Under the pieces are notes generated by a model. It did no database searches, had not been told where the DNA came from, and saw only the letters and a list, made by a program, of their open reading frames with translations. Below are positions 24,775 to 37,335 of a stretch of DNA of 49,815 nt, piece after piece (the first letter of the stretch is position 1; each line of letters begins with the position of its first letter). Source of the stretch: Candidatus Rokuibacteriota bacterium (GTDB lineage Bacteria > Methylomirabilota > Methylomirabilia > Rokubacteriales > CSP1-6). The DNA lies in the NCBI GenBank assembly GCA_016179875.1, contig JACPCH010000021.1:1-49815 (forward strand). The letters run 5' to 3'. Made by a program: the position numbers and the translations under genes.

Positions 24775-25413
24775 TTACAGCAGCCGGTGCTTGCTGGCGT
24801 ACGCGACCGCCTCGAGGCGGCTGTGGACGCCGAGCTTGCCGAAGATGTTCTGCACGTGGTTGCGGACCGTGGCCGGGCTCACGTGCAGCTTCTCGGCGGC
24901 CGCCGCCGTGTTGAGGCCCTGCATCATGAGGCGCAGCACCTCGACCTCGCGGCGGGTCAGCGCCGAGGCGGCCTCGGGGCGCTCGCCGTTCGGCGGCCCG
25001 GCGAGCCGGTCGTGCACGAGCGTCAGGAGCTCCTTCGTCGCCGTCACGTCGCGGAAGAGGTGGACGGTCAGCGGGCCGCTCCGCCCGTTGGGCGGCGTGA
25101 CGAGGATGCTGACGTTGATCCAGATCGGCTTGCCGGCCTTCGAGCGCGTGTGCATGTCGAAGCTCTGGATCGGATCGCCGAGCTTCACGAGGTTCTGGAC
25201 GTGGCAGCCCTGGTAGCAGAGCCGGTTGCCGGCGTCGTCCACGCCGACGAAGACGTCGCAGCACGGGCGGCCCACCACCTCGCGCGCGGTGTAGCCGAGG
25301 ACCCGCTCGGCGGTCCGGTTCCACAGGACGATCCGCCCGTCTCCGCCGATCACGAAGGCGCCGTCGCCGGCCCGGGCCAGCGCCTGGTCGAGGCCCGACT
25401 CAATGGCGGGCAT
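24775..25413 (-). CDS. PAS-domain LuxR-family transcriptional regulator
   Basis: N-terminal PAS (GRIVLWNRTAERVLGYTAREVVGRP). C-terminal LuxR HTH (LTRREVEVLRLMMQGLNTAAAAEKLHVSPATVRNHVQNIFGKLGV). Confidence 0.9.
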   Translation of the reverse strand: MPAIESGLDQALARAGDGAFVIGGDGRIVLWNRTAERVLGYTAREVVGRPCCDVFVGVDDAGNRLCYQGCHVQNLVKLGDPIQSFDMHTRSKAGKPIWINVSILVTPPNGRSGPLTVHLFRDVTATKELLTLVHDRLAGPPNGERPEAASALTRREVEVLRLMMQGLNTAAAAEKLHVSPATVRNHVQNIFGKLGVHSRLEAVAYASKHRLL

Positions 25414-25525
25414 GGCGTTCGTACACCGGGCCGGCGAGCGCGGTCGAGAGGGCGTATGGCCCGCCGGCGAGCCCTGGATTCAGGAAGGGACACACCGCTG
25501 TCTCCACATCAGCCATCGTCATCAT
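25400..25525 (-). CDS. 41-aa CPFL-motif mini-protein (hypothetical)
   Basis: Own translation: MMTMADVETAVCPFLNPGLAGGPYALSTALAGPVYERHARH. GAAGGAGG lies 7 nt upstream of ATG 25525. It sits about 30 nt downstream of a sigma54-like promoter and overlaps the PAS-LuxR start by 14 nt. It shares the CPFL motif with the 28194-28660 proteins. Confidence 0.4.
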   Translation of the reverse strand: MMTMADVETAVCPFLNPGLAGGPYALSTALAGPVYERHARH

Positions 25526-25554: not shown

Positions 25555-25570
25555 TGCGAGCTTCGTGCCA
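25555..25570 (-). promoter_or_regulatory. sigma54-like -24/-12 promoter P3 (weaker -12)
   Basis: The minus strand reads TGGCAC-GAAGC-TCGCA. GG-N10-GC spacing is kept, with TCGCA instead of TTGCA. It is about 30 nt upstream of the ATG at 25525. Confidence 0.5.
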
Positions 25571-25804: not shown

Positions 25805-26907
25805 TCAGCCCAGAGCCGGGAGAGCGAGGCCGTCAGGCGACGTCACGCCACCTCGGGGCTCCCACGCGCACAGCGGATCCTCGCCCAGCGCGTCGCCGGT
25901 CGCCGCGAACGCGCGGGCGCGCGAGCCGCCGCACAGCGCGTGGAACCCGCACGCGCCGCAGCGGCCGTGGAACCGCTCGGGCGCGCGCAGGTCCCGGAAG
26001 AGCGCGGCGTCGCGGTAGATCTCCAGCACGTCGCCCTCGCGGACGTTGCCGGCGGCGAGCGGCAGGAAGCCCGACGGCGTCACGTCGCCGTTCGCCGCGA
26101 TAAACAGGATCCCGTTGCCGTCGCGGATGCCGAAGCTCCGCGCGGCCGGGCTCTGGCGGATCTCCGCGCCGTTGGCGCCGCCGGCGCGCATCGCCTGGAC
26201 CAGGACCCGGCGCCAGTGGGGCGCCTCCGTCGTGGTCACCGCGAACGGCCACCCGGGGGCGCGGGCCGCCAGCCAGCGGAGCGTGGCCTCGCACTCGTCG
26301 GCGCCGAGCGGGCGCAGGGCCCGGCCGCGACCGACGGACACCAGGAAGAAGAGGCTCCAGCGGGCGGCGCCCATCCGGGCGACGACCCGGGCGATGGATT
26401 CCAGATCGGGCTCGGTCTCCGCGGTGACCAGCGTGTTGACCTGGAGCGGGATGCCGGCCGCCACGATCCGCTGCGCGGCCACGAGGGTCCAGCCGAAGCA
26501 GCCGTAGACGCCCCGGAGGCCGTCGTGGCGGGCCGGGCTCGACCCGTCGAGCGACAGCGACATCGCGCCCACGCCGGCCTCCTTGAGGGCGGACACCGTG
26601 TCCCGGCCGAGCGCCTGGGTCGCGCTCGGCGCCACCGCGACCGGCAGCCCGAGCCCGACCGCGTGCCGCACGAGCGGGAGGAGGTCGGGCCGCTTGAGCG
26701 GGTCGCCGCCCGTGAAGACGACGTGGGGCGCGGGCGCGCCCGCGGCGGCCAGCTGGTCCAGCACCCGCTCGCACTCCGCCGTCGTGAGCTCGCACGGCTC
26801 GCGCTCCTTCTGCGCCTCGGCGCGGCAGTGGCGGCAGGCGAGGTCGCAGGCCCGCGTGAGCTCCCAGTACACGCGGACGGGCGCCCGCGCGTACACGGGA
26901 GCCGGCA

Positions 26908-26908
<1 letters not shown>
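25805..26908 (-). CDS. radical SAM / SPASM-domain enzyme (NirJ/AhbD-like architecture)
   Basis: Same frame as ORF 25805..27850, trimmed to ATG 26908. Radical SAM motif CDLACRHC in VYWELTRACDLACRHCRAEA. FFLVSVGRG. C-terminal auxiliary-cluster Cys motif GRCGACGFHALCGG. The start overlaps the gltA stop by 1 nt (TGATG). Confidence 0.9.
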
Positions 26909-28193
<1,285 letters not shown>

Positions 28194-28197
<4 letters not shown>

Positions 28198-28433
28198 GAC
28201 GCGCCTCCCGTCTGAAGCCAGTGGCGGTAGGTGAGACAGCCGTGGTGGCAGCCGGTGGTGCAGAACCACGCGAACTCGTCCGCGGAGGGAACGCACAGCG
28301 GTCCCAGACGGAGCCGGCAGGTGAACCCGTGCGGATAGCTGTGCTCGAGGTCGCCGTCCACGGCGACGAGGAACGGGCATCCGGTGGACACGTTCCCGGA
28401 ATCGATCGGGACGGAACGGTCGGTCGCGATCAT
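28194..28433 (-). CDS. Cys/His-rich CPFL-motif protein 2 (79 aa, hypothetical)
   Basis: Same frame as ORF 28194..28637, trimmed to ATG 28433 (GGGAGG upstream). MIATDRSVPIDSGNVSTGCPFLVAVDGDLEHSYPHGFTCRLRLGPLCVPSADEFAWFCTTGCHHGCLTYRHWLQTGGAS, with 6 Cys. The stop overlaps the gltA start (ATGA). High GC3. Confidence 0.6.
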
Positions 28434-28435
28434 GG

Positions 28436-28660
28436 TCAGCCTCCCTGCGGCGGCGCGCCGGTCGGGGCGCCCGCGCTCGCCTGGTACCGCCCGCACGCGA
28501 GGTAGGCGCGCGTGACGCACACGCCCGCGAGGGTGGCCGGCGCCGGGACCCGCACGCTCTGGCCCGGGCGGTGGCAGTACATCCCGACCGGATACAGCCA
28601 GAGCCGGTCCGCGATCACCGGAACCAGAAAGGGGCACCGGTCGTCGGGTTCGCTCGTCAT
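28436..28660 (-). CDS. Cys-rich CPFL-motif protein 1 (74 aa, hypothetical)
   Basis: MTSEPDDRCPFLVPVIADRLWLYPVGMYCHRPGQSVRVPAPATLAGVCVTRAYLACGRYQASAGAPTGAPPQGG, with 4 Cys. GGAGGAGGG upstream. High GC3. The stop lies 2 nt before the paralog start. Confidence 0.6.
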   Translation of the reverse strand: MTSEPDDRCPFLVPVIADRLWLYPVGMYCHRPGQSVRVPAPATLAGVCVTRAYLACGRYQASAGAPTGAPPQGG

Positions 28661-28688: not shown

Positions 28689-29450
28689 TCACGGGAGGCT
28701 CCGCCCGTTCGTGCGCCAGTGGATGACGGCCGCGCGCTTCCGGAACGGCGCGATCCACTCCCCGTCGGCGCGCCGCAGGCGCGCGGCCAGGAAGCCGCGC
28801 AGGAACGCGCGCGGCGCCTCGCCCTGGAGCCGCATGTACTCCATCCAGAAGTCGCACGCCTCGTCGAGCGAGTCGAACGGCTGGTCGGAGTCGTACTCGA
28901 TCGCCGTCACCGTGGGCCGCACGCCGAGCCGCGCCAGCTCGTCGAGCGCCTCGTCGGCGTCGCAGCCGTGCTCGTACGGCCGGCCGAGGAGGCGCGGGTA
29001 GAGCTCGCCGAAGAAGAACTTGTCGCCGCCGGGCACGTCGCGCACGAGCGCGACGCCCCGCCGGGCGACGGCGCCGGCCTCGCGGAGGAAGGACGCGCCG
29101 CGCTTCACGAGGGGGCTCACGTGGGCGCAGACGACGAGATCGTGCGGCGCGACGGGCGCCGCCCCCCACGCCGCCTCCATCACGGTCAGGCGGGCGAGCC
29201 CCTCCCGCCCGGCGGCGCGCGCGAGCGCCGCCGCCATCGCGGGCGCGGGCTCGAGCGCGGTCACGACGAGGCCGCGCCGCGCGAGCGGCAGCGCGAGGGC
29301 GCCGAAGCCGGCGCCGACGTCGAGCGCGCTCGTCGAGCCCGCCAGCAGGTCGGCGAGCGCGGCGAGGACCTTCGGGGCGTAGTCGCTCCGCGCGTTCGCC
29401 CGCTCGTACCAGGCGACCGTCCGCGCGTTCCAGAGATCGCCGCGGCTCAG
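28689..29450 (-). CDS. class I SAM-dependent methyltransferase (start codon unresolved)
   Basis: SAM motif ALDVGAGFGALALPLA about 40 aa into the frame. The coding-like third-position bias of this frame begins only near 29450, where the only candidate start is CTG. The ORF-track start at 29696 would add about 80 aa of non-coding-looking sequence that contains a sigma54 promoter. Confidence 0.75.
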   Translation of the reverse strand: MSRGDLWNARTVAWYERANARSDYAPKVLAALADLLAGSTSALDVGAGFGALALPLARRGLVVTALEPAPAMAAALARAAGREGLARLTVMEAAWGAAPVAPHDLVVCAHVSPLVKRGASFLREAGAVARRGVALVRDVPGGDKFFFGELYPRLLGRPYEHGCDADEALDELARLGVRPTVTAIEYDSDQPFDSLDEACDFWMEYMRLQGEAPRAFLRGFLAARLRRADGEWIAPFRKRAAVIHWRTNGRSLP

Positions 29451-29515
29451 CGCCGCTCGACCAGGCAGATCCGGACCTTCCCTTCCTGCGCCAGCATGGA
29501 CCCGATCGCGATCAT
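29447..29515 (-). CDS. 22-codon leader ORF (MIAIGSMLAQEGKVRICLVERR), or the displaced true N-terminus of the methyltransferase
   Basis: AGGAGG 6 nt upstream of ATG 29515. 20 of 21 codons end in G/C. Its TGA overlaps the CTG at the head of the methyltransferase frame (CTGA). It sits about 40 nt downstream of the sigma54 promoter. Confidence 0.35.
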   Translation of the reverse strand: MIAIGSMLAQEGKVRICLVERR

Positions 29516-29554
29516 CGTCGCCTCCTGGTAAGGGTCGTCGACTTTCGGAAGCGA

Positions 29555-29570
29555 CGCAACCCGCGTGCCA
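29555..29570 (-). promoter_or_regulatory. sigma54 (RpoN) -24/-12 promoter P2
   Basis: The minus strand reads TGGCAC-GCGGG-TTGCG, a near-consensus TGGCAC-N5-TTGC. It is about 40 nt upstream of the leader ORF ATG at 29515. Confidence 0.75.
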
Positions 29571-29685: not shown

Positions 29686-30051
29686 TCACCGGCCATGGAC
29701 GGTCCGCTCGACCAGCGTCGCGAGCTCCGACGCCGCGAAGGGCTTGGCGAGGTAGGCGGCGGCGCCCGCGCCGAACGCGGCCTGGCGGCTCGCCTCCGAG
29801 GCGAACCCGGTGACCACGATGACCGGCACGGGCGCCGGCGCCCGGCAGGCGGCGTGCACGATGTCGAGCCCGTCGCCGTCCGGCAGCCGGAGGTCCGAGA
29901 TGACGAGCGCGAGCCGCTCGCTCGCGATGATGGCGAGCCCCTCGTGACGCGTGCTGCTCCCGATCACCCGGTAGCCGGAGCGCCCCAGGAGCCGCTCGTA
30001 GCTGGCCAGGAGGTCCCGCTCGTCGTCGACGGCGAGGATCGCCGGTGTCAC
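29686..30051 (-). CDS. single-domain response regulator (CheY-like receiver)
   Basis: 121 aa, ILAVDDE...LVISDLRLPDGDG...YLAKPF receiver motifs. GTG start overlaps the CBS gene stop (GTGA). Confidence 0.9.
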   Translation of the reverse strand: MTPAILAVDDERDLLASYERLLGRSGYRVIGSSTRHEGLAIIASERLALVISDLRLPDGDGLDIVHAACRAPAPVPVIVVTGFASEASRQAAFGAGAAAYLAKPFAASELATLVERTVHGR

Positions 30052-30452
30052 GCCGTCTTCGCGAACTCGCGGAGCACGTCGGTCTCCGTGATGATCCCGA
30101 CGAGCTGGCCGCTCGAGACGACCGGCAGCGCGCCGATCTTGTTCTCCACCATGACCTGCGCCGCCTCACGGGCCTCCTGGGTCGGGCCGATCGCGATGAC
30201 GTCCTTCGTCATCACGGCGCCGACCGTCATCTTGGCCAGGAGGTAGTTGATCTCCCAGACCGAGAGGCTGGTCGCCGGCGACGGCAGGTTGAGGCGGATG
30301 TCGCGGTCCGTCACGATGCCGGCGAGCCGCCCGCCGTTGGTCACCAGCAGATGGCGGATGCGCTTCTCCACCATGAGCTGGCGGGCCTCCAGCACGGGGG
30401 TCTCGGGCGCCACGGTGATGTAGCTGATCGTCATGATGTCCTGGACTCGCAT
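30048..30452 (-). CDS. CBS-pair domain protein
   Basis: 134 aa, two CBS repeats (VQDIMTISYITV...HLLV and VGAVMTKDVIAI...ALPVV). Confidence 0.9.
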   Translation of the reverse strand: MRVQDIMTISYITVAPETPVLEARQLMVEKRIRHLLVTNGGRLAGIVTDRDIRLNLPSPATSLSVWEINYLLAKMTVGAVMTKDVIAIGPTQEAREAAQVMVENKIGALPVVSSGQLVGIITETDVLREFAKTA

Positions 30453-30462
30453 GGGTCCTCCT

Positions 30463-31587
30463 TCAGCGGTGAGAGGCGCCGGAGGCGCTTCGGTGGAGCT
30501 GGTGCGCCAGCCTCAGCACGGCCTCGATGGCGCTCCAGGCGTCTTGCCGGTCGGTCCGGAGCGTGAGCTCGGGGGCGAGCGCGTGCTCGTAGTCGGGCGC
30601 GACGTCGGGCGCCGCGACGGTCCCCGGCGCGCCGCGGCGGGCGACACCGCCCGCCGCCAGGCACCAGCGCACCGCGCGCTCGCGGTCCACGCAGAGCTCG
30701 CGGGGGCAGACCAGCTGGACCTCGGCGAAGTGCGCGATCAGCTGGCGCGCCATCTCGCGCCAGGCCCGGCGCGACGCCGTCGCGTCCACGATCACCGGGA
30801 CGCCGGCCTCCGTCAAGAGCTTCGCCGCGCCGGCGAGCGCGCGGTGGACCAGCTCCCGCGCCGCGTCCGACTCCGGGCGGTCGCCCAGGACGAAGCGCCG
30901 CAGGTCCGCGAGGTCGAGCACGCGGATCGGGATCCCCCGCTCCGCGAGCGCCTCGGCCGCGCCCCAGGCGAGCGTCGTCTTGCCGCTGCCCGGCAGCCCC
31001 GTGATCCAGATCGCCCAGCCGCCGGCCGCCGGGCTCCGGCCCGCGCGCGGCGCGCGGGCCAGTCCACGCGCCAGGTCCAGGATCGCCGCGACGGAGGCCG
31101 CCGGGTCGTGGCGCGCGGTGTCGAGCGTCAGCTCGGGCGCGAGCGCCGGCTCGTACGCCACGTCCACGCCCGGCACCGTCGCCCCCGCCCGCCCGGCCCG
31201 CGCGTAGATGCCGGGGGGCGCGTGTCCCCCGGCGCGCCGCGCCTCGCGCTCGCGGCACACGTCGAGCGGGCAGACGAGCTGCACCTCGGCGAAGCGCGCG
31301 ATCGTCGCGCGCGCCAGGTCGCGCCACGCCCGGCGGTGGCCGGTGGCGTCGACGATCACGGGCACGCCGGCCTCGGTCAGGGCCGCGGCGATGTACACGA
31401 GGGCGCGATACACCAGCTCGCGCTCCGTCGCCGAGTACGTCGGCGCCGGCGTGAGCGTCTTGCGGAGCGCGTCGAGCTCCAGGTGGACGACCGGCTCGCC
31501 GCGCTCGCGGAGCGCCGCCGCCGCGCTCCGCGCCAGCACCGACTTGCCGCTGCCCGGCAGCCCGGTGATCCAGATCGCCCAGCTCAT
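30463..31587 (-). CDS. tandem-duplicated P-loop kinase (two adenylylsulfate-kinase-like domains in one chain)
   Basis: Same frame as ORF 30463..32136, trimmed to ATG 31587 (ATGA overlap). Two roughly 188-aa halves each start AIWITGLPGSGK(S/T) and share ...LTEAGVPVIVDAT..RRAWR..A...FAEVQLVCP...ALAPELTL. Confidence 0.8.
   Translation of the reverse strand: MSWAIWITGLPGSGKSVLARSAAAALRERGEPVVHLELDALRKTLTPAPTYSATERELVYRALVYIAAALTEAGVPVIVDATGHRRAWRDLARATIARFAEVQLVCPLDVCREREARRAGGHAPPGIYARAGRAGATVPGVDVAYEPALAPELTLDTARHDPAASVAAILDLARGLARAPRAGRSPAAGGWAIWITGLPGSGKTTLAWGAAEALAERGIPIRVLDLADLRRFVLGDRPESDAARELVHRALAGAAKLLTEAGVPVIVDATASRRAWREMARQLIAHFAEVQLVCPRELCVDRERAVRWCLAAGGVARRGAPGTVAAPDVAPDYEHALAPELTLRTDRQDAWSAIEAVLRLAHQLHRSASGASHR
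30463..31587 (-). repeat. intragenic tandem duplication, period 564 nt
   Basis: The 41-nt segments 30979-31019 and 31543-31583 (cttgccgctgcccggcagccc[c/g]gtgatccagatcgcccagc) differ at 1 position. Further similarity runs along both halves. Confidence 0.8.
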
Positions 31588-32684
31588 CGGGCCGCCCCGC
31601 AGAGCCGGTCGAGGGCGCCGGGCGCGAACGCGCCGCCGTCGAGCAGGCCGGTCGCCAGCCGGACCAGCGCCGTCCGGGTGGCCGGCGCGAGGGTCGGGTA
31701 CCAGCGCGGATGCGCGATCACCAGTGCCCGGAACGCGAGGAACGGCGGCAGCACCTCCAGGAGCTCCGCGTCGCCCGACCGCACGAGGTACACGGCGAGG
31801 AAGCGCCGGAAGAGCTCGCGGAAGGGCTCGGCCACCGTCGCCGGCTCGCGCTCGCTCCGGCGCAGCCCGAAGAAGAGATAGTTGATGCCGAGCGCCGCGA
31901 CGTCGTCGGCCGGCTCGCCCCATTCCCCGCGGCTCCGGTCGAGCACCGAGAAGTCCGTGCCGTCGCGGAAGAGCAGGTTCCACGGGTGGAAGTCGCCGTG
32001 CGTGCGCGCGAGCCGGTGGCTCCGCCCCCGGAGGCGCCAGCGCCAGGCCACGGCGGCGCGCTCGAGCGCCTCGCACGCCGCCGGCGGCAGGAACGGCCAC
32101 GGATGCGGCAGGCTGTCGAGAATCCCCATCAGGCACTCGCCGTGGCCGACGAGCTCCCGGATGCGGCGCTCGTAGAGCGTCGGCTCGTCACGGCGCTCGG
32201 CGTGGGCGCCGGCGAGGAACGCCGCCAGCGCCTCGGCGCGCGCCACGTCCAGCGGGCGCGGCGGGGCGACGAGCAGCCGGTCGAGGTCGAGCCAGTACAG
32301 CTGTCCGGCCGCCTTCTCGACGAGCTGGAAGAACTCGTGCGCGTCGCCGGCCGAGACCAGTTCGCCCGACGCGCGCTCGAAGCCGACGTCGAGGCTCCTC
32401 ACGTGCCGCGGAAAGCTGTTGTACGCCTCGTGGGCGTACAGCGCCTGCCACGCGCGGTCGGCGGGATAGTCGTGGCCGAAGCCGCGGGCCGGCCGCGTGC
32501 GCGACACGACGAACGCGCGCGGCGCGCCCCCGACGAGGCACTCCACCTCGAAGGGCACGCCATAGCCGAACCCCTTCGGGTCGAGCTCCGCGCCCGCGGC
32601 GGCCTTGAGGGGCTGGAGGCCCAGGATCTCGACGGGCGTGCGGAGCACGCCGGCGAGATAGCCCGTGAGCGTTGACTTATCCAC
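31584..32684 (-). CDS. aminoglycoside-phosphotransferase / choline-kinase-fold kinase (APH family)
   Basis: 366 aa. Catalytic loop HGDFHPWNLLF and downstream VLDRSRGEWGEPADDVA. GTG start with GGAG upstream. Confidence 0.85.
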   Translation of the reverse strand: MDKSTLTGYLAGVLRTPVEILGLQPLKAAAGAELDPKGFGYGVPFEVECLVGGAPRAFVVSRTRPARGFGHDYPADRAWQALYAHEAYNSFPRHVRSLDVGFERASGELVSAGDAHEFFQLVEKAAGQLYWLDLDRLLVAPPRPLDVARAEALAAFLAGAHAERRDEPTLYERRIRELVGHGECLMGILDSLPHPWPFLPPAACEALERAAVAWRWRLRGRSHRLARTHGDFHPWNLLFRDGTDFSVLDRSRGEWGEPADDVAALGINYLFFGLRRSEREPATVAEPFRELFRRFLAVYLVRSGDAELLEVLPPFLAFRALVIAHPRWYPTLAPATRTALVRLATGLLDGGAFAPGALDRLCGAAR

Positions 32685-32735
32685 CCGTCTCCGGTGACGT
32701 CGGTGCCGCGGCCCCGGGGCAGCCCATCATCCGGC

Positions 32736-33176
32736 CTACCGGCCCCGCACCGTGAGCACCGGACACGGCGACGCCGCCACCACGCGCCCCGCCACGCTGC
32801 CGAGGAACAGCTTCGCAAGCCCCGAGCGTCCGTGCGTGCCCATCACGACGAGGTCCGCCCGCCGCGACTTCGCGATCCGCACGATCTGCTCGTGCGGCAC
32901 GCCTTCGAGGAGGAACCCCCTGGCCCGCACGCCGGCGGCCTTCGCCTTCGCGAGGCGCTTGGCGAGCTGCTTCTGCCCCCACGCCTTGGTGGACGCCGCG
33001 ATCTCGTCGTAGACCTTCGGCGAGATGTAGCCGTCGCCGGGCACGGGGATCACCGGGTTCATGACGTGCACGAGCAGCAGCTCGCCGCGGCCGGCCTTCG
33101 CCATCTCGACCGCCTTCGCGAAGGCGGCGGCGGAGGCCGTGGAGAAATCCGTGGGGTGCAGGACGCGGCGGCTCAT
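32736..33176 (-). CDS. universal stress protein (UspA family) 3
   Basis: Same frame as ORF 32736..33641, trimmed to ATG 33176 (ATGA overlap). ...DLVVMGTHGRSGLAKLFLGSVAGRVV... Confidence 0.9.
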   Translation of the reverse strand: MSRRVLHPTDFSTASAAAFAKAVEMAKAGRGELLLVHVMNPVIPVPGDGYISPKVYDEIAASTKAWGQKQLAKRLAKAKAAGVRARGFLLEGVPHEQIVRIAKSRRADLVVMGTHGRSGLAKLFLGSVAGRVVAASPCPVLTVRGR

Positions 33177-33649
33177 CGCACGGCCTCCCAGGCCGCGCGC
33201 GCGGCCACCTGCGCCTCGGTCTGGCGCATCAGGAACACGGGCACCTCGGACTGCCGCAGCACCGCCTCGGCGACGGAGCCGAACAGCAGCCGGCCGAACC
33301 CGCTGCGCCCGTGCGTGGTCATCGCGATCAGGTCGGCCTTCGCCTCGCGGGCGGCGGCGAGGATCTCCCCGGCGGGCTCGCCGCGGCGCACCATGGTCCG
33401 GACGCGGATGCCCTTGGTGCGCAGCTCCGCGGCGATCGGCGTCAGGTACGCCTCGGCCTCCGCGCGCCGCTTTTCCGGGTCCTCCACCTCGACGTGCCGT
33501 GAGGCCTCGATGACCGACGGCGGCACCGGCACCATCACGCGGACCAGCACGACCTCGATGTCGAGCGGCCCCGCGATCTCGAGGATGAACGGCAGGATGC
33601 CCTCGGCCACGATGGAGCCATCGAGCGGGATGGCGACGCACTTATACAC
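33173..33649 (-). CDS. universal stress protein (UspA family) 2
   Basis: 158 aa, ...DLIAMTTHGRSGFGRLLFGSVAEAVL... Confidence 0.9.
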   Translation of the reverse strand: MYKCVAIPLDGSIVAEGILPFILEIAGPLDIEVVLVRVMVPVPPSVIEASRHVEVEDPEKRRAEAEAYLTPIAAELRTKGIRVRTMVRRGEPAGEILAAAREAKADLIAMTTHGRSGFGRLLFGSVAEAVLRQSEVPVFLMRQTEAQVAARAAWEAVR

Positions 33650-34121
33650 GGCTGGTCTCCTTCACCGGCGCCGCGGCGCGCGGCGGCTCGAGGGGCGCGC
33701 TGTCGGCGCGCACGACGAGGATGGGGGTGGTGGTGCCACGCAGCACCGCCTCGGCGACGCTCCCGAGGATCAAGCGGCCCAGGCCGCTCCGCCCGTGCGT
33801 GGACATCGTGATCAGGTCCGCCTTCTGCACGCGCGCCGCCTCGACGATGGCCCCGGCGGGTGCGCCGTACCAGACGTGCGTCTCCACCTTCCGGATGTCG
33901 CGGTCCGCCAGCCGGCGGACGACGCCCTCGAGATACTCCTCGGCCTCGCGTACCGCCGCGACCTGCGCGTCCACCGGATCGGCGCCGGGCACGGTGTGCG
34001 CCTCGGCAGCCCTGAGGAGGCTCACCGTGGCGTCCGTGCCGGCCAGATCGATCGCCTGCCACAACGCCGCCTCGGCCAGGGTCGAGCCGTCCAGCGGCAC
34101 CAGGATCTTGGCGAGCTTCAT
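33642..34121 (-). CDS. universal stress protein (UspA family) 1
   Basis: Same frame as ORF 33642..34142, trimmed to ATG 34121 (GGAGGAGG 6 nt upstream). ...DLITMSTHGRSGLGRLILGSVAEAVL... Confidence 0.9.
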   Translation of the reverse strand: MKLAKILVPLDGSTLAEAALWQAIDLAGTDATVSLLRAAEAHTVPGADPVDAQVAAVREAEEYLEGVVRRLADRDIRKVETHVWYGAPAGAIVEAARVQKADLITMSTHGRSGLGRLILGSVAEAVLRGTTTPILVVRADSAPLEPPRAAAPVKETSRV

Positions 34122-34171
34122 GGGCTGCCTCCTCCCCGTCATGGGTTGCCTGCACTCCGCTCACGGAGACG

Positions 34172-34187
34172 AGCAACCCCGATGCCA
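34172..34187 (-). promoter_or_regulatory. sigma54 (RpoN) -24/-12 promoter P1
   Basis: The minus strand reads TGGCAT-CGGGG-TTGCT with exact GG-N10-GC spacing. It is 50 nt upstream of the USP start at 34121 and immediately downstream of the bEBP gene. Confidence 0.7.
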
Positions 34188-34200
34188 GAGGGAAGAGGTG

Positions 34201-34229
34201 AAGGAAAACGGCGGCTTATCGCCCGTTTC
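34201..34229 (-). terminator. intrinsic-terminator-like hairpin after the bEBP gene
   Basis: The minus strand reads GAAACGGGCG-ATAAG-CCGCCGTTTTCCTT. This gives a stem of about 8 bp with one bulge followed by a T-rich tail, located between the bEBP stop and P1. Confidence 0.5.
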
Positions 34230-34259
34230 TCGGGGGCTCGATGTGGCCGGGCAGCCCCT

Positions 34260-34272
34260 GTGGGACATCGCC
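34260..34272. promoter_or_regulatory. candidate enhancer (UAS) 13-mer, copy 1
   Basis: The plus strand reads GTGGGACATCGCC, the exact reverse complement of the 13-mer at 29669-29681. It is about 80 nt upstream of P1. Confidence 0.4.
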
Positions 34273-34288
34273 GCCCCGTCGCCGAGGG

Positions 34289-35689
34289 CTAACCGCGGAT
34301 CTGGTACTTGTTGATGAGCCGGTGGAAGGTCTTGCGGTCGATGCCGGCGGCCTTGGCGGCCGCCGAGATGTTGCCCCCGTGGCGCTCGAGGAGGTCGCGC
34401 AGGTACGCGGCCTCGAGCACCTGCATCCATTTCTCCTTGGCGTCCTTGAGCGGCAGGTCGGCGGTGGCGCCGGCCGGCAGGGCCGCCCCGGCCGCCGGCG
34501 CGGCGCCGGCGGCGCGCAGGCCCCGGCCCTGGACGAGGTAGTCGGGCAGATCCTGACGGCCGACGCGGTCGCCGTCGGCGAGCGCGCACGCCCGCTCGAC
34601 CACGTTCTGCAGCTCGCGCACGTTGCCCGGCCACGCCCAGGCCTCGAGCGTCTCGAGCGCGGCTTCCTCGAACGCGCGCACGCGCTCGCCGCCGTAGCGC
34701 TTGAGGAAGGCGTGCGCGAGCAGCCGCACGTCGCCCGCGCGGTCGCGGAGCGGCGGCAGCGGGATCTCGATCACGTTGACCCGGTAGTAGAGCTCCTCGC
34801 GGAACTGCCCCTTGGCGACCGCCGCCCGGAGGTCCCGGTTGGTCGCCGAGACCACGCGGGCGTCCACGTCGATCGTCGCGGTCCCGCCCACGCGGCGCAG
34901 CTGGCGCTCCTGGAGCGCGCGCAGGAGCTTCACCTGGAGGACCACGGGCATCTCCGCGATCTCGTCCAGGAAGAGCGTGCCGCGGTCGGCGACCTCCATG
35001 AGCCCGCGCTTACCCTTCACCGCCCCGGTGAACGCGCCCTTTTCGTGGCCGAACAGCTCCGACTCGAGGAGCTGCTCGGGGAGCGACGCGCAGTCCACCG
35101 GCACGAACGGCTGGGCCGCCCGCGGGCTGTTGGCGTGGATCGCCCGCGCGATCAGCTCCTTGCCGGTGCCCGATTCGCCGAGCACCAGGATGTTGGCCTC
35201 GGAGCGGGCCGCCTTGCGGACGAGCTCGAACACCCTCGCCATCGCCGGGCTTCGTCCGAGGATGTTCTCGAAGCCGAGCGTGCCCTGCAGCTGGTCGCGC
35301 AGGTTGCGGTTCTCGATCTGGAGCTCGCGCTGCCGGAGCCCGCGCTCGACCGCCACCCGGAGCTGCTCCACCGAGAAGTTCTTCGGCAGGTAGTCGAAGG
35401 CCCCGTCCTTGATGGCCGCCACCGCGGACTCGATCGTCGCGAACGCGGTGATGAGGACGACCGGGAGCGCCGGGTCCACCTCCCGGGCCCGGCGCAGCAG
35501 CTCCATGCCATCCATCCCCGGCATCTTGACGTCGGTCAGCAGGAGATCCGGACGCTCGGTCTCGACGAGCGCCAGCGCCCGGCGCGGGTCGGTGGCGGTC
35601 AGACACTGGAGGCCCGCGCGCTTCAGGATGCGGGCGCAGTTCTCGACCATGTCCGGCTCGTCGTCCACCACCAGCACGCGCTGCGCCAT
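34289..35689 (-). CDS. sigma54-dependent response regulator (NtrC-family bacterial enhancer-binding protein)
   Basis: Same frame as ORF 34289..36616, trimmed to ATG 35689. Receiver (VLVVDDE...TDVKMPGMDG), AAA+ (GESGTGKE, GAFTGA, LFLDEI), and C-terminal Fis-type HTH. Confidence 0.95.
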   Translation of the reverse strand: MAQRVLVVDDEPDMVENCARILKRAGLQCLTATDPRRALALVETERPDLLLTDVKMPGMDGMELLRRAREVDPALPVVLITAFATIESAVAAIKDGAFDYLPKNFSVEQLRVAVERGLRQRELQIENRNLRDQLQGTLGFENILGRSPAMARVFELVRKAARSEANILVLGESGTGKELIARAIHANSPRAAQPFVPVDCASLPEQLLESELFGHEKGAFTGAVKGKRGLMEVADRGTLFLDEIAEMPVVLQVKLLRALQERQLRRVGGTATIDVDARVVSATNRDLRAAVAKGQFREELYYRVNVIEIPLPPLRDRAGDVRLLAHAFLKRYGGERVRAFEEAALETLEAWAWPGNVRELQNVVERACALADGDRVGRQDLPDYLVQGRGLRAAGAAPAAGAALPAGATADLPLKDAKEKWMQVLEAAYLRDLLERHGGNISAAAKAAGIDRKTFHRLINKYQIRG

Positions 35690-37335
35690 CAGGCCAGCTC
35701 CCCGTCCCCCGCGCCGCGGAACGTCAGCACGAACGTCGTGCCCTCGCCGGGCCGCGACTGCACGTCCACGGTGCCCCGGTGCTCGCGCACGATCCCGTAG
35801 GAAATGCTGAGGCCGAGGCCGGTGCCCTCGGCCTTGGTCGTGAAGAACGGGTCGAAGATCCGCGGCAGGTCCTCGGGCGGGATGCCCGGGCCCGTGTCGC
35901 GCACGACCAGGCGCACGCCGCCGGGCGGCTCGGCCGCGGGCGCGGTCTCGATCGCGATCTCGCCGCCTTTTCGCACGGCGTCGCGCGCGTTGGTCAGCAG
36001 GTTCATCACCACCTGCTGGAGCGCGTTGGCGTCGCCCCAGACCGGGGGCAGCGTCGGCGCCAGGGCGCGCCGGAGCGCGATGCCGTCGCGGACGATCTGC
36101 TTCTCGATCAGGAGCAGGGTCTCGTCCACCAGGCGGTTGAGGTCCACGCGCCCGTGGGCGCCCGAGGAGTGGCGGGAGAACGACAGGAGGCCCTGCGCGA
36201 TGCGCGCGACGCGCTGGGCGTGGCGGTGGATCACGTGCAGGTCCTCGCGCACGTCCGCGGGCAGCGGGCGCGTCTCGGCGTCGAGCTGCATCAGCTCGGC
36301 GCGCGTCGAGATGACGCCGATCGGGTTGTTGAGCTCGTGGGCGAGGCCCGCCGCCAGCGTGCCGAGCGCCGCGAGCTTCTCGGCCTGGCGGGCGGCGCGC
36401 TCGATGCCGACGCGCTCGGTGATGTCCTCGACCAGGAGGACCGCGCCCGCGGGCCGCGCGCCCTCCCGGAGCAGGCGTCCCTTGATGTTCTGGACGACCA
36501 TGCCCGTGCGCAGGCTCTGGTGGTCGACGCCCTCCTCCGCGAACTCCTCGATCTCGCCGCGCAGCAGCCGCCCGAGGCTCTGCGACCACGGCTCCCTGGC
36601 GGCCGCGGGGAAGCACTCGAAGTAGCGGCGTCCGGTGACCTCGGCGGCCGGCACGTCGTAGCGCGTCTCCATGGCGCGGTTCCAGGCCACGATCCGCCCG
36701 TCGGCGTCGAGCGCGAACACGCCCTCGCTCAGGTTGTCCACGACGCTCTGGATGAACCGCTCACGGTCCAGGATCTCGGCGGAGAGCGTCGCCCCGCGCA
36801 GGCGCTCGCGCTGCTCGATCTCGGCGAGGACGCCCACGCTGACGGCCGTGCCGAGCAGGACGATGAGCCGCATGGCGACGTTGGGGATCTCCAGGCCCAC
36901 GATGGTCGGCCAGACGACGGCCAGGTAGGCCGCCGCCGACACGCAGGCGACCGCCACCCCGCGCCGGATGCCGTAGTAGTACGACTGCAGCGCGGCGATC
37001 AGCGGCAGCGCCAGGTAGAGGCCGCTGCGCGCCCCGCCCGTCAGGGCGATCAGGACCAGCGCGAAGAGCTGGTCGAGGAGGAGGACGTAGAAGTTCAGCC
37101 GGAGCGTCGCCGCCGGCCGCGTCCAGAGCGCCGCCTCCACCGCCGTGCTGTAGACGAGGAAGCCCAGCGTGGCCAGCAGCAGGGCCTGCGACTCCTGGAA
37201 GGGCGCCGGCGCGAGGAGGAGCCAGGCCAGCGCGGCCAGGACCGCCAGCGTGCGCAGCAGCGGCAGCGCCAGCACCCGGGCGCCCCCGACGTGGAGCGCC
37301 AGCCGGTCGAACATGCGGGTCAGCGTCTCGGTCAT
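35689..37335 (-). CDS. membrane sensor histidine kinase (TM region, PAS, HisKA, HATPase)
   Basis: 548 aa. N-terminal hydrophobic helices, PAS, H-box LAHELNNPIG, N/G boxes (NLLTNARDA, DTGPGI, GTGLGLS). The stop overlaps the bEBP start by 1 nt. Confidence 0.9.
   Translation of the reverse strand: MTETLTRMFDRLALHVGGARVLALPLLRTLAVLAALAWLLLAPAPFQESQALLLATLGFLVYSTAVEAALWTRPAATLRLNFYVLLLDQLFALVLIALTGGARSGLYLALPLIAALQSYYYGIRRGVAVACVSAAAYLAVVWPTIVGLEIPNVAMRLIVLLGTAVSVGVLAEIEQRERLRGATLSAEILDRERFIQSVVDNLSEGVFALDADGRIVAWNRAMETRYDVPAAEVTGRRYFECFPAAAREPWSQSLGRLLRGEIEEFAEEGVDHQSLRTGMVVQNIKGRLLREGARPAGAVLLVEDITERVGIERAARQAEKLAALGTLAAGLAHELNNPIGVISTRAELMQLDAETRPLPADVREDLHVIHRHAQRVARIAQGLLSFSRHSSGAHGRVDLNRLVDETLLLIEKQIVRDGIALRRALAPTLPPVWGDANALQQVVMNLLTNARDAVRKGGEIAIETAPAAEPPGGVRLVVRDTGPGIPPEDLPRIFDPFFTTKAEGTGLGLSISYGIVREHRGTVDVQSRPGEGTTFVLTFRGAGDGELA

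Follow-up and report, generated by a model that had tools for sequence, protein, structure and literature searches.

Our analysis of a 49,815-nucleotide stretch of DNA from Candidatus Rokuibacteriota (contig JACPCH010000021.1 of assembly GCA_016179875.1; this whole stretch is referred to below as the window) indicates that two adjacent small open reading frames (ORFs) on its minus strand, ORF A (28436..28660; 74 amino acids [aa]) and ORF B (28194..28433; 79 aa), are paralogous genes of a protein family which, judged by sequence, is undescribed and has no Pfam, NCBIfam, or PDB counterpart. We refer to it as the Cys4 family, with ORF A as an A-type and ORF B as a B-type member. We estimate at about 50% the probability that both are cytoplasmic Cys4 proteins that would bind a metal or an iron-sulfur (Fe-S) cluster and act as redox partners or accessory subunits of co-encoded enzymes, within a sigma54-dependent stress or low-oxygen regulon. 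The family occurs mainly in Rokubacteria and their relatives, where its genes adjoin those of oxygen-sensitive redox enzymes; the Rokubacteria/Methylomirabilota are abundant, mostly uncultured bacteria of soil and groundwater.

ORF A and ORF B have the appearance of real, translated genes. Both are preceded by a Shine-Dalgarno (SD) sequence of the GGAGG type, and their GC contents at third codon positions (GC3) are 0.92 and 0.85, respectively, compared with an overall GC content of 0.73 in the window and GC3 values of 0.95 to 0.98 in neighboring genes. BLASTP aligned the two proteins with an E value of 2e-7 (35% identity over 52 aa). When a profile of the family was searched against the six-frame translation of the window, it matched ORF A (E = 3.6e-28) and ORF B (E = 6.5e-23), and there was no other significant match; the string CP[FY]L is present at only three places in that translation. 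The original prediction, made from the sequence alone, had described two adjacent ORFs of these lengths with good SDs and high GC3, containing four and six Cys residues and sharing the motif CPFLVxV followed by YPxG(M/F)xC, with CTTGCHHGC in the second. All of this is borne out, with the second shared motif lying seven residues after the first, and the paralogy that it proposed is beyond chance by both the BLASTP and the profile scores. One could still regard the two as chance, unexpressed ORFs, as spurious ORFs are plentiful in GC-rich genomes and the GC3 of ORF B is somewhat below that of its neighbors. We consider the probability of this to be close to nil: hundreds of homologs display position-specific conservation, which effectively refutes it, and the SDs, together with stop-start overlaps with flanking genes that are kept in three lineages, also speak against it.

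As a single query, ORF A retrieved 22 homolog clusters with identities of 43 to 95%, the named ones being "hypothetical proteins" of Candidatus Rokubacteria metagenome-assembled genomes (MAGs), and ORF B retrieved one match only, a twin with 96% identity. A profile search of 1.84 billion representative sequences yielded 189 clusters (counted at 50% identity) at E values of ≤1e-3, 82 of them at ≤1e-10, and a broader profile added 158 clusters at 90% identity, among them an 85-aa subfamily that is abundant in Candidatus Methylomirabilis. The genome matches were to 11 Rokubacteria/Methylomirabilota MAGs and to one MAG labeled Limnocylindria. The signature of the family is C-P-[FY]-L-x(16-20)-[YF]-C-x(6-8)-R-[VI]-P-x8-C-x7-C-x2-[YF]. 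In an alignment of 165 sequences, the first Cys (Cys1) and the Pro that follows it are conserved at 98%, Cys2 to Cys4 at 100%, the Pro of R-[VI]-P at 95%, and the aromatic residue three positions past the last Cys at 94%; the homologs thus retain the CPFL/Cys pattern that had been noticed in the window, with the four Cys at 98 to 100%. The Cys residues are spaced as C-x19-C-x18-C-x7-C, and any pair of family Cys is at least 7 residues apart. Conservation extends over the entire domain of approximately 60 residues, and the variable part is a tail beyond Cys4 that is free of Cys and rich in Ala, Pro, and Gly.

Membership was judged by four Cys at the conserved positions, CP[FY]L, R[VI]P, C-x7-C-x2-[YF], and a significant profile score; by this standard both ORF A and ORF B, each with all four Cys, belong to the family. 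ORF A follows the pattern CPFLVPVIADRLWLYPVGMYC...RVP...C-x7-C-x2-Y, with Cys at positions 9, 29, 48, and 56. In ORF B (YPHG..C.LR.G...PS.DE.AWFCT.G.HH.C.TYR), the family Cys are residues 19, 39, 58, and 66; the additional Cys at positions 47 and 62 are lineage specific, are not conserved in the subfamily of ORF B, and do not characterize the family. The subfamily of ORF B has the pattern YPHG..C.LR.G...PS.DELAWFCTNG.HH.C.TYR, and its relatives are found among P0095 to P0148 (P0095, P0097, P0102, P0131, and others).

Neither ORF A, ORF B, nor six other members gave a match at E values of ≤1 in Pfam-A or NCBIfam. Searching PDB sequences with two family profiles produced nothing above noise (FSH beta, E = 0.15; unkempt, E = 0.74), and a full-text literature search on the family motif found nothing relevant. 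Cys_rich_CPXG, CpXC, and similar Pfam families resemble the Cys4 family in being small, bacterial, Cys-rich, motif-defined domains of unknown function, and none of these models matched the same eight proteins at that threshold. The earlier statement that the proteins could not be placed in any known family therefore holds for Pfam, NCBIfam, PDB sequences, PDB folds, and the literature. Its further proposal of a new family of small metal- or Fe-S-binding proteins agrees with all of our findings and is supported as to a new and diverse family (189 clusters) with four fixed Cys; the metal-binding part is carried forward here as a proposal. What is new, in the libraries searched, is the protein family; a small Cys4 metalloprotein with a redox-enzyme partner would be of a familiar kind.

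AlphaFold2 (AF2) models were obtained with mean predicted local distance difference test (pLDDT) values of 66.6 for ORF A (25 sequences) and 74.7 for ORF B (149 sequences). The two share one topology, in which two or three short helices follow a beta-hairpin. Strand 1 opens with Cys1 and strand 2 closes with Cys2, so that these two lie at opposite ends of the hairpin; Cys3 closes the first helix, Cys4 opens the helix that follows, and the helix-helix turn lies between them. In these predicted structures, the placement of the Cys residues would allow the four thiols to converge. Foldseek found no match in the PDB for either model.

We propose that the domain folds around its four invariant, widely spaced Cys, which most likely bind one metal centre together, as suggested by their invariance, their predicted placement, and the redox enzymes encoded nearby. 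An Fe-S cluster would be favored over structural zinc because each Cys is isolated (spacing 19/18/7), CxxC knuckles are absent, two of the Cys precede a Pro, aromatic residues lie beside the Cys, and redox enzymes are encoded by the neighboring genes. Cys4 sites of small cytoplasmic proteins do often hold zinc, and the occurrence of the module as a repeat in a large scaffold-like protein (P0169, described below) could suit a structural zinc mini-domain, which would make the proteins non-redox adaptors or assembly factors for pyruvate:ferredoxin oxidoreductase (PFOR) or citrate synthase. We judge this to be unlikely. The paired CxxC/CPxC knuckles of zinc ribbons and treble clefs are absent from the family alignment, zinc-finger matches were found neither in Pfam nor among PDB sequences, there was no fold match, and the neighbors are overwhelmingly Fe-S or flavin redox enzymes.

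Among known electron carriers, ferredoxins and high-potential iron-sulfur proteins (HiPIPs) are the closest in kind: they are likewise small Cys4 proteins beside PFOR and radical S-adenosylmethionine (SAM) genes, the role of a one-electron carrier would fit, and the aromatic residues next to Cys recall HiPIPs. In contrast to these proteins, the Cys4 family lacks CxxCxxCxxxCP and is mostly basic rather than acidic, and unlike HiPIPs, it has no signal peptide, as many members begin with MCPFL. No Fer4 or HiPIP match was obtained in Pfam at E values of ≤1, and hhalign gave a probability of 0.07% against a manually entered HiPIP sequence.

The evidence for a role beside redox enzymes comes from gene order. 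In the window, ORF A and ORF B lie within an operon on the minus strand whose order is sigma54 site, methyltransferase, ORF A, ORF B, citrate synthase, and radical SAM protein. The genes are closely packed: 28 nucleotides (nt) separate the methyltransferase gene from ORF A and 2 nt separate the stop codon of ORF A from ORF B, the stop codon of ORF B overlaps the ATG of the citrate synthase gene (ATGA), and the stop codon of the latter overlaps the start of the radical SAM gene by 1 nt (TGATG). The first gene (28689..29501, start uncertain) encodes a class I SAM-dependent methyltransferase (Pfam Methyltransf_11/25), for which NCBIfam matches were generic and below threshold only; its orthologs adjoin family genes in loci L015, L016, L023, and L036. 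The citrate synthase (26908..28197) is of type I (GltA; NF004126, 591 bits versus a cut-off of 505). The radical SAM/SPASM protein (25805..26908) is an AhbD/NirJ-like member of TIGR04053, the only model that it matches above threshold (422.8 bits versus a cut-off of 395); AhbD/NirJ come next, with 283 bits for the AhbD model, below its cut-off of 500. AhbD and NirJ are tetrapyrrole enzymes, and the role of AhbD has been described (PMC10548856). A full-text literature search on TIGR04053 found nothing relevant. The citrate synthase and TIGR04053 genes form a pair with overlapping stop and start codons that is kept across many Rokubacteria loci (L008, L023, L036, L052, and L066), and this pair is often accompanied by genes for PFOR and a dihydroorotate dehydrogenase-like (DHODH-like) protein.

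We mapped the proteins of the window, PFOR, the DHODH-like protein, and a second Cys4 family (membrane anchored; described at the end) onto approximately 70 related genome and metagenome loci. The census comprises 43 distinct family copies of the Rokubacteria type, for which the upstream gene was informative in 38 and the downstream gene in 35; distant subfamilies (P0118, P0100, and P0161) sit on contigs of approximately 1 kb, which are uninformative for context. Directly upstream of the 43 copies were PFOR in 10, a DHODH-like gene that itself follows PFOR in 6, a membrane-anchored Cys4 mini-protein in 9, a methyltransferase in 4, and something else in 9, with no data for the remaining 5. PFOR or a PFOR-linked DHODH-like gene thus directly precedes the family gene in 16 of the 43. 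Two divergent types of PFOR are involved, approximately 31 to 33% identical to one another, and each has its small gene 3 to 35 nt downstream. The gene directly downstream encodes a radical SAM protein in four copies (L016, L017, L020, and L064) and citrate synthase in another four. Within 8 kb, the counts were 14 for PFOR, 12 for radical SAM, 11 for the membrane-anchored Cys4 protein, 9 for citrate synthase, 7 for the DHODH-like gene, and 6 each for the methyltransferase and for PAS-LuxR, a regulator also encoded in the window. The overlap of a B-type gene with the start of citrate synthase is found in three lineages (the window, L023 to L025, and L078 to L080). The tandem arrangement of an A-type and a B-type gene also recurs elsewhere, because P0039 is an A-type/B-type pair that was merged by the gene caller.

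The recurrent neighbors are thus redox enzymes that work with, or depend on, one-electron partners (PFOR, flavoenzymes, and radical SAM enzymes), plus citrate synthase; the genes beside the NC10-type family member, described below, add to this picture. The reading that we favor takes the family proteins of Rokubacteria/Methylomirabilota to be co-transcribed, and often translationally coupled, with redox enzymes, and this co-transcription and coupling is the reason for suggesting a dedicated role as redox partner or accessory subunit. A-type genes come after PFOR and the DHODH-like flavoenzyme or ahead of the AhbD-like radical SAM gene, and B-type genes overlap the citrate synthase start and have a putative sigma54 promoter before them. 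The proteins would then serve PFOR, flavoenzymes, the radical SAM enzyme, and citrate synthase in electron transfer or redox sensing, in a regulon for stress or low oxygen that sigma54 and an NtrC-type activator would drive, and ORF A and ORF B possibly function as a pair. If they are Fe-S proteins, they would represent a new small cluster-binding fold and would be candidates to fill the place of the physiological redox partner or regulator that is missing for PFOR in this phylum.

Several observations weigh against this proposal. The confidence of the AF2 models is only moderate. No PFOR gene was found in the window, and approximately one-fourth of the family copies are without any recurrent neighbor. 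The family is mostly basic, with a median isoelectric point of 8.5 and a core net charge of +2, whereas the usual partners of PFOR, ferredoxins and flavodoxins, are acidic; a basic charge is no less compatible with a role in regulation or binding. Finally, there are the fusions. That the domain occurs within larger proteins supports, as does the agreement of the two AF2 models, its nature as a folded domain. In P0169 (1,077 aa), five tandem copies follow a module composed of a receiver and a ParA-like domain and are themselves followed by a C-terminal transmembrane (TM) helix; in P0141, the domain follows a DksA/TraR C4 zinc finger, and in P0161, it follows a receiver-like N terminus. P0201 has a double domain of an A-type and another type, and P0053 joins the domain to the Cys4 domain of the membrane-anchored family. 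The fusions to receiver and DksA-type modules point to signaling rather than to bulk electron transfer.

This raises the possibility that the proteins are small regulators that sense redox state, O2, or NO and that would influence transcription or the activity of an enzyme by binding RNA polymerase, a regulator such as PAS-LuxR (a one-component regulator encoded at 24775..25413 on the minus strand), or a co-encoded enzyme. We consider such a function conceivable though somewhat doubtful, and retain it as a strong rival because of the basic charge of the family and its fusions to receiver, DksA/TraR, and ParA-like signaling modules. It would also be in line with the location of some copies between two PAS-LuxR paralogs (L047 and L061), with the pairing of some with a membrane-tethered Cys4 protein, reminiscent of pairs of a factor and a membrane-bound anti-factor, and with the presence of the genes within a regulon of sigma54 and universal stress proteins (USPs). 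Against it, there is no recognizable DNA-binding motif, and the tightest linkage is to enzymes (PFOR and citrate synthase), with the translational coupling that is typical of subunits. Were the role one of sensing, a plausible analogy in function would be the WhiB-like (Wbl) [4Fe-4S] proteins of Actinobacteria, which are also cytoplasmic proteins of 70 to 100 aa with four invariant Cys, restricted to a lineage, often basic, and linked to redox and stress. The likeness does not extend to homology: hhalign gave a probability of 0.2% (with a manually entered WhiB1 sequence), no Wbl match was found in Pfam, and the Wbl Cys motif is absent from the family. The Cys spacing (C-x19-C-x18-C-x7-C versus C-xn-C-x2-C-x5-C), the phyla, and the predicted fold (a beta-hairpin versus the all-helical Wbl fold) differ as well.

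The original prediction had offered a further alternative, namely, that the ORFs encode precursor or carrier peptides with a conserved N-terminal recognition motif and variable Cys-rich C termini. We treated this as the reading of a ribosomally synthesized and posttranslationally modified peptide (RiPP) or a peptide-derived cofactor, which the radical SAM/SPASM protein and the methyltransferase would modify, as in SCIFF/ranthipeptides, PQQ, or mycofactocin. The operon does place small Cys-rich ORFs together with both enzymes. The four copies directly upstream of a radical SAM gene could be cited in its favor, as could a family member of the NC10 type in one genome, which is followed by a different (activase-like) radical SAM gene and a gene for a flavin adenine dinucleotide (FAD) protein. 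The gene for the five-repeat protein P0169 likewise adjoins one for an FAD protein. The division on which the idea was based is not what the family alignment displays: conservation in it is uniform, with no leader and core to be seen, the Cys residues span the whole domain, and it is the variable tail that is Cys free. Full-length conservation is also a property of SCIFF-type precursors, and SCIFF and ranthipeptide precursors are similarly short, Cys-rich ORFs near radical SAM/SPASM genes. The Cys4 family differs from them in its loose linkage to radical SAM genes, which adjoin the family gene directly in just 4 of the 35 copies that are informative and lie within 8 kb in only 12 of 43, and in the lack of a RiPP recognition element (RRE), a protease, and an exporter. 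The radical SAM protein itself is of the tetrapyrrole type; Pfam finds only Radical_SAM and SPASM in it, the core begins at approximately residue 13, and it lacks an N-terminal leader-recognition domain because its CxxxCxxC motif is at residues 20 to 27. The operon contains no PqqD-like ORF, peptidase, RRE protein, or exporter, and the citrate synthase gene stands between the small ORFs and the radical SAM gene. The presence of the domain inside large multidomain proteins, and as five repeats in one of them, is also difficult to reconcile with a precursor. We therefore regard a precursor function as highly improbable.

A variant of this idea, for which PQQ and mycofactocin are the models, would have the Cys4 proteins act as substrates or scaffolds of the orphan TIGR04053 enzyme and the methyltransferase, yielding a protein-derived redox cofactor or a cross-linked protein for an anaerobic metabolism of Rokubacteria centered on PFOR and citrate synthase. 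By analogy, such a scheme can be imagined, and it appears to us a long shot; if true, it would provide a function for a new protein family as well as for an uncharacterized radical SAM family. Irrespective of these alternatives, the family signature allows several hundred "hypothetical proteins" to be named and removes a tempting, weakly supported RiPP annotation.

With respect to regulation, we took a sigma54 promoter to consist of a -24 GG/-12 GC element (TGGCAC-N5-TTGC) upstream of a transcription unit, accompanied by a cognate enhancer-binding protein. At the sequence level, both are found in the window. The element TGGCACGCGGGTTGC at 29556..29570 on the minus strand matches the consensus exactly, is the only match in the window without a mismatch, and is the likely promoter of the operon, and a gene for an NtrC-type sigma54 enhancer-binding response regulator (34289..35689, minus strand; Pfam Response_reg, Sigma54_activat, and HTH_8), paired with a histidine kinase gene (35689..37335, minus strand), lies approximately 5 kb upstream of it. 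Two further elements on the minus strand, each with one mismatch, were found in the motif scan: TGGCATCGGGGTTGC at 34173 to 34187, ahead of the first USP gene, and TGGCACGAAGCTCGC at 25556..25570, upstream of a 41-aa mini-ORF and of PAS-LuxR. The NtrC-type activator is a candidate driver of the three putative promoters. When up to two mismatches were allowed, the motif was not enriched in the window (28 found versus 35 expected), and the meaningful sites are only those with zero or one mismatch in intergenic or operon-leading positions. An rpoN gene was not seen in the window. In related loci L023 and L078, a conserved sigma54 element, CGGCACATCGCTTGC, is present approximately 30 to 45 nt before the B-type genes. 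The claim that the CPFL ORFs all lie behind sigma54 promoters consequently stands at the level of the operon, where the exact site precedes the methyltransferase gene, and does not apply to ORF A and ORF B individually, as there is no such element directly before either.

Two observations concern the surroundings of the exact site. The minus-strand stress-gene block from 29686 to 37335, syntenic with L023 to L025 and in part with L078, contains, in addition to the genes for the histidine kinase and the NtrC-type activator, genes for three USPs, an aminoglycoside phosphotransferase-like (APH-like) kinase, a protein with two P-loop domains similar to adenosine 5'-phosphosulfate (APS) kinase, a CBS pair, and a stand-alone receiver. 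In the minus-strand segment from 29447 to 29570, the exact sigma54 site is followed by a single strong SD (AGGAGG), located ahead of an ATG at 29514, which opens an ORF of 22 codons (MIAIGSMLAQEGKVRICLVERR*) in a frame other than that of the methyltransferase. In the methyltransferase frame, neither ATG nor GTG nor TTG occurs ahead of the conserved N-terminal block, and the stop codon of the 22-codon leader overlaps a CTG in this frame (CTGA), a layout that is the same in L023. The methyltransferase might be started by reinitiation at the CTG, through a frameshift, or from a start farther upstream.

The 41-aa mini-ORF (25400..25525, minus strand; MMTMADVETAVCPFLNPGL...) had been counted as a third CPFL protein. 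The ORF, its CPFL string, the sigma54-like site, and the overlap with PAS-LuxR all exist: an AGGAGG sequence precedes its ATG, it starts approximately 30 nt downstream of TGGCACGAAGCTCGC, and its end overlaps the ATG of PAS-LuxR, which is without an SD of its own, by 14 nt. Its membership in the family is another matter. We conclude that the mini-ORF is not a family member, because it has one Cys only (corresponding to the first), it matches the family profile only at positions 5 to 25 (E = 0.03), its GC3 of 0.74 equals background, and its other copies are only strain variants with more than 99% identity. It was not found upstream of the PAS-LuxR orthologs in L016 and L017, where there is no room for it, and it gave no match in Pfam or NCBIfam. 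The possibility that it is a decayed third copy was considered and rejected, as the other frames hold no remains of the missing Cys-bearing part. Despite its noncoding-type GC3, it may be a translational-coupling leader that delivers ribosomes to the SD-less PAS-LuxR gene. The PAS-LuxR protein itself (Pfam PAS_9 and GerE) carries a conserved four-Cys motif, CC-x13-C-x3-CH (GRPCCDVFVGVDDAGNRLCYQGCH), in its PAS domain, which we take to resemble Fe-S-based oxygen-sensing PAS domains such as that of NreB. Its orthologs adjoin family genes in L016, L017, L047, L061, and L066.

Two other small proteins accompany family members outside the window. The first is the membrane-anchored protein mentioned above, which belongs to a second undescribed family of 90 to 120 aa, in which a single N-terminal TM helix is combined with a Cys4 domain in the cytoplasm (TM-Cys4). 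Its motif is [FW]-C-P-x7-V-x-V-x-F ... C-[ST]-x-F ... C-x3-C, and it has no match in Pfam. An hhalign probability of 0.4% led us to reject the TM-Cys4 proteins as distant relatives of the CPFL proteins and to treat them as a separate family. No TM-Cys4 gene was found in the window; such genes are present in L001 (7230 to 7998), L005 (7044 to 7957), L012, L014, L015, L018, L052, and L078, and they lie directly upstream of an A-type gene in 9 of the 38 informative copies, with the single fusion in P0053. The second is a conserved basic protein of 75 to 77 aa (…LLTAGKLAAAWGVKP.DVKKAIVA.GVKPDA.RCGCAYYG…), the gene for which always precedes that of the 85-aa family member in genomes of the Methylomirabilis type, as in L032 (6646 to 6873) and L034 (6647 to 6880).

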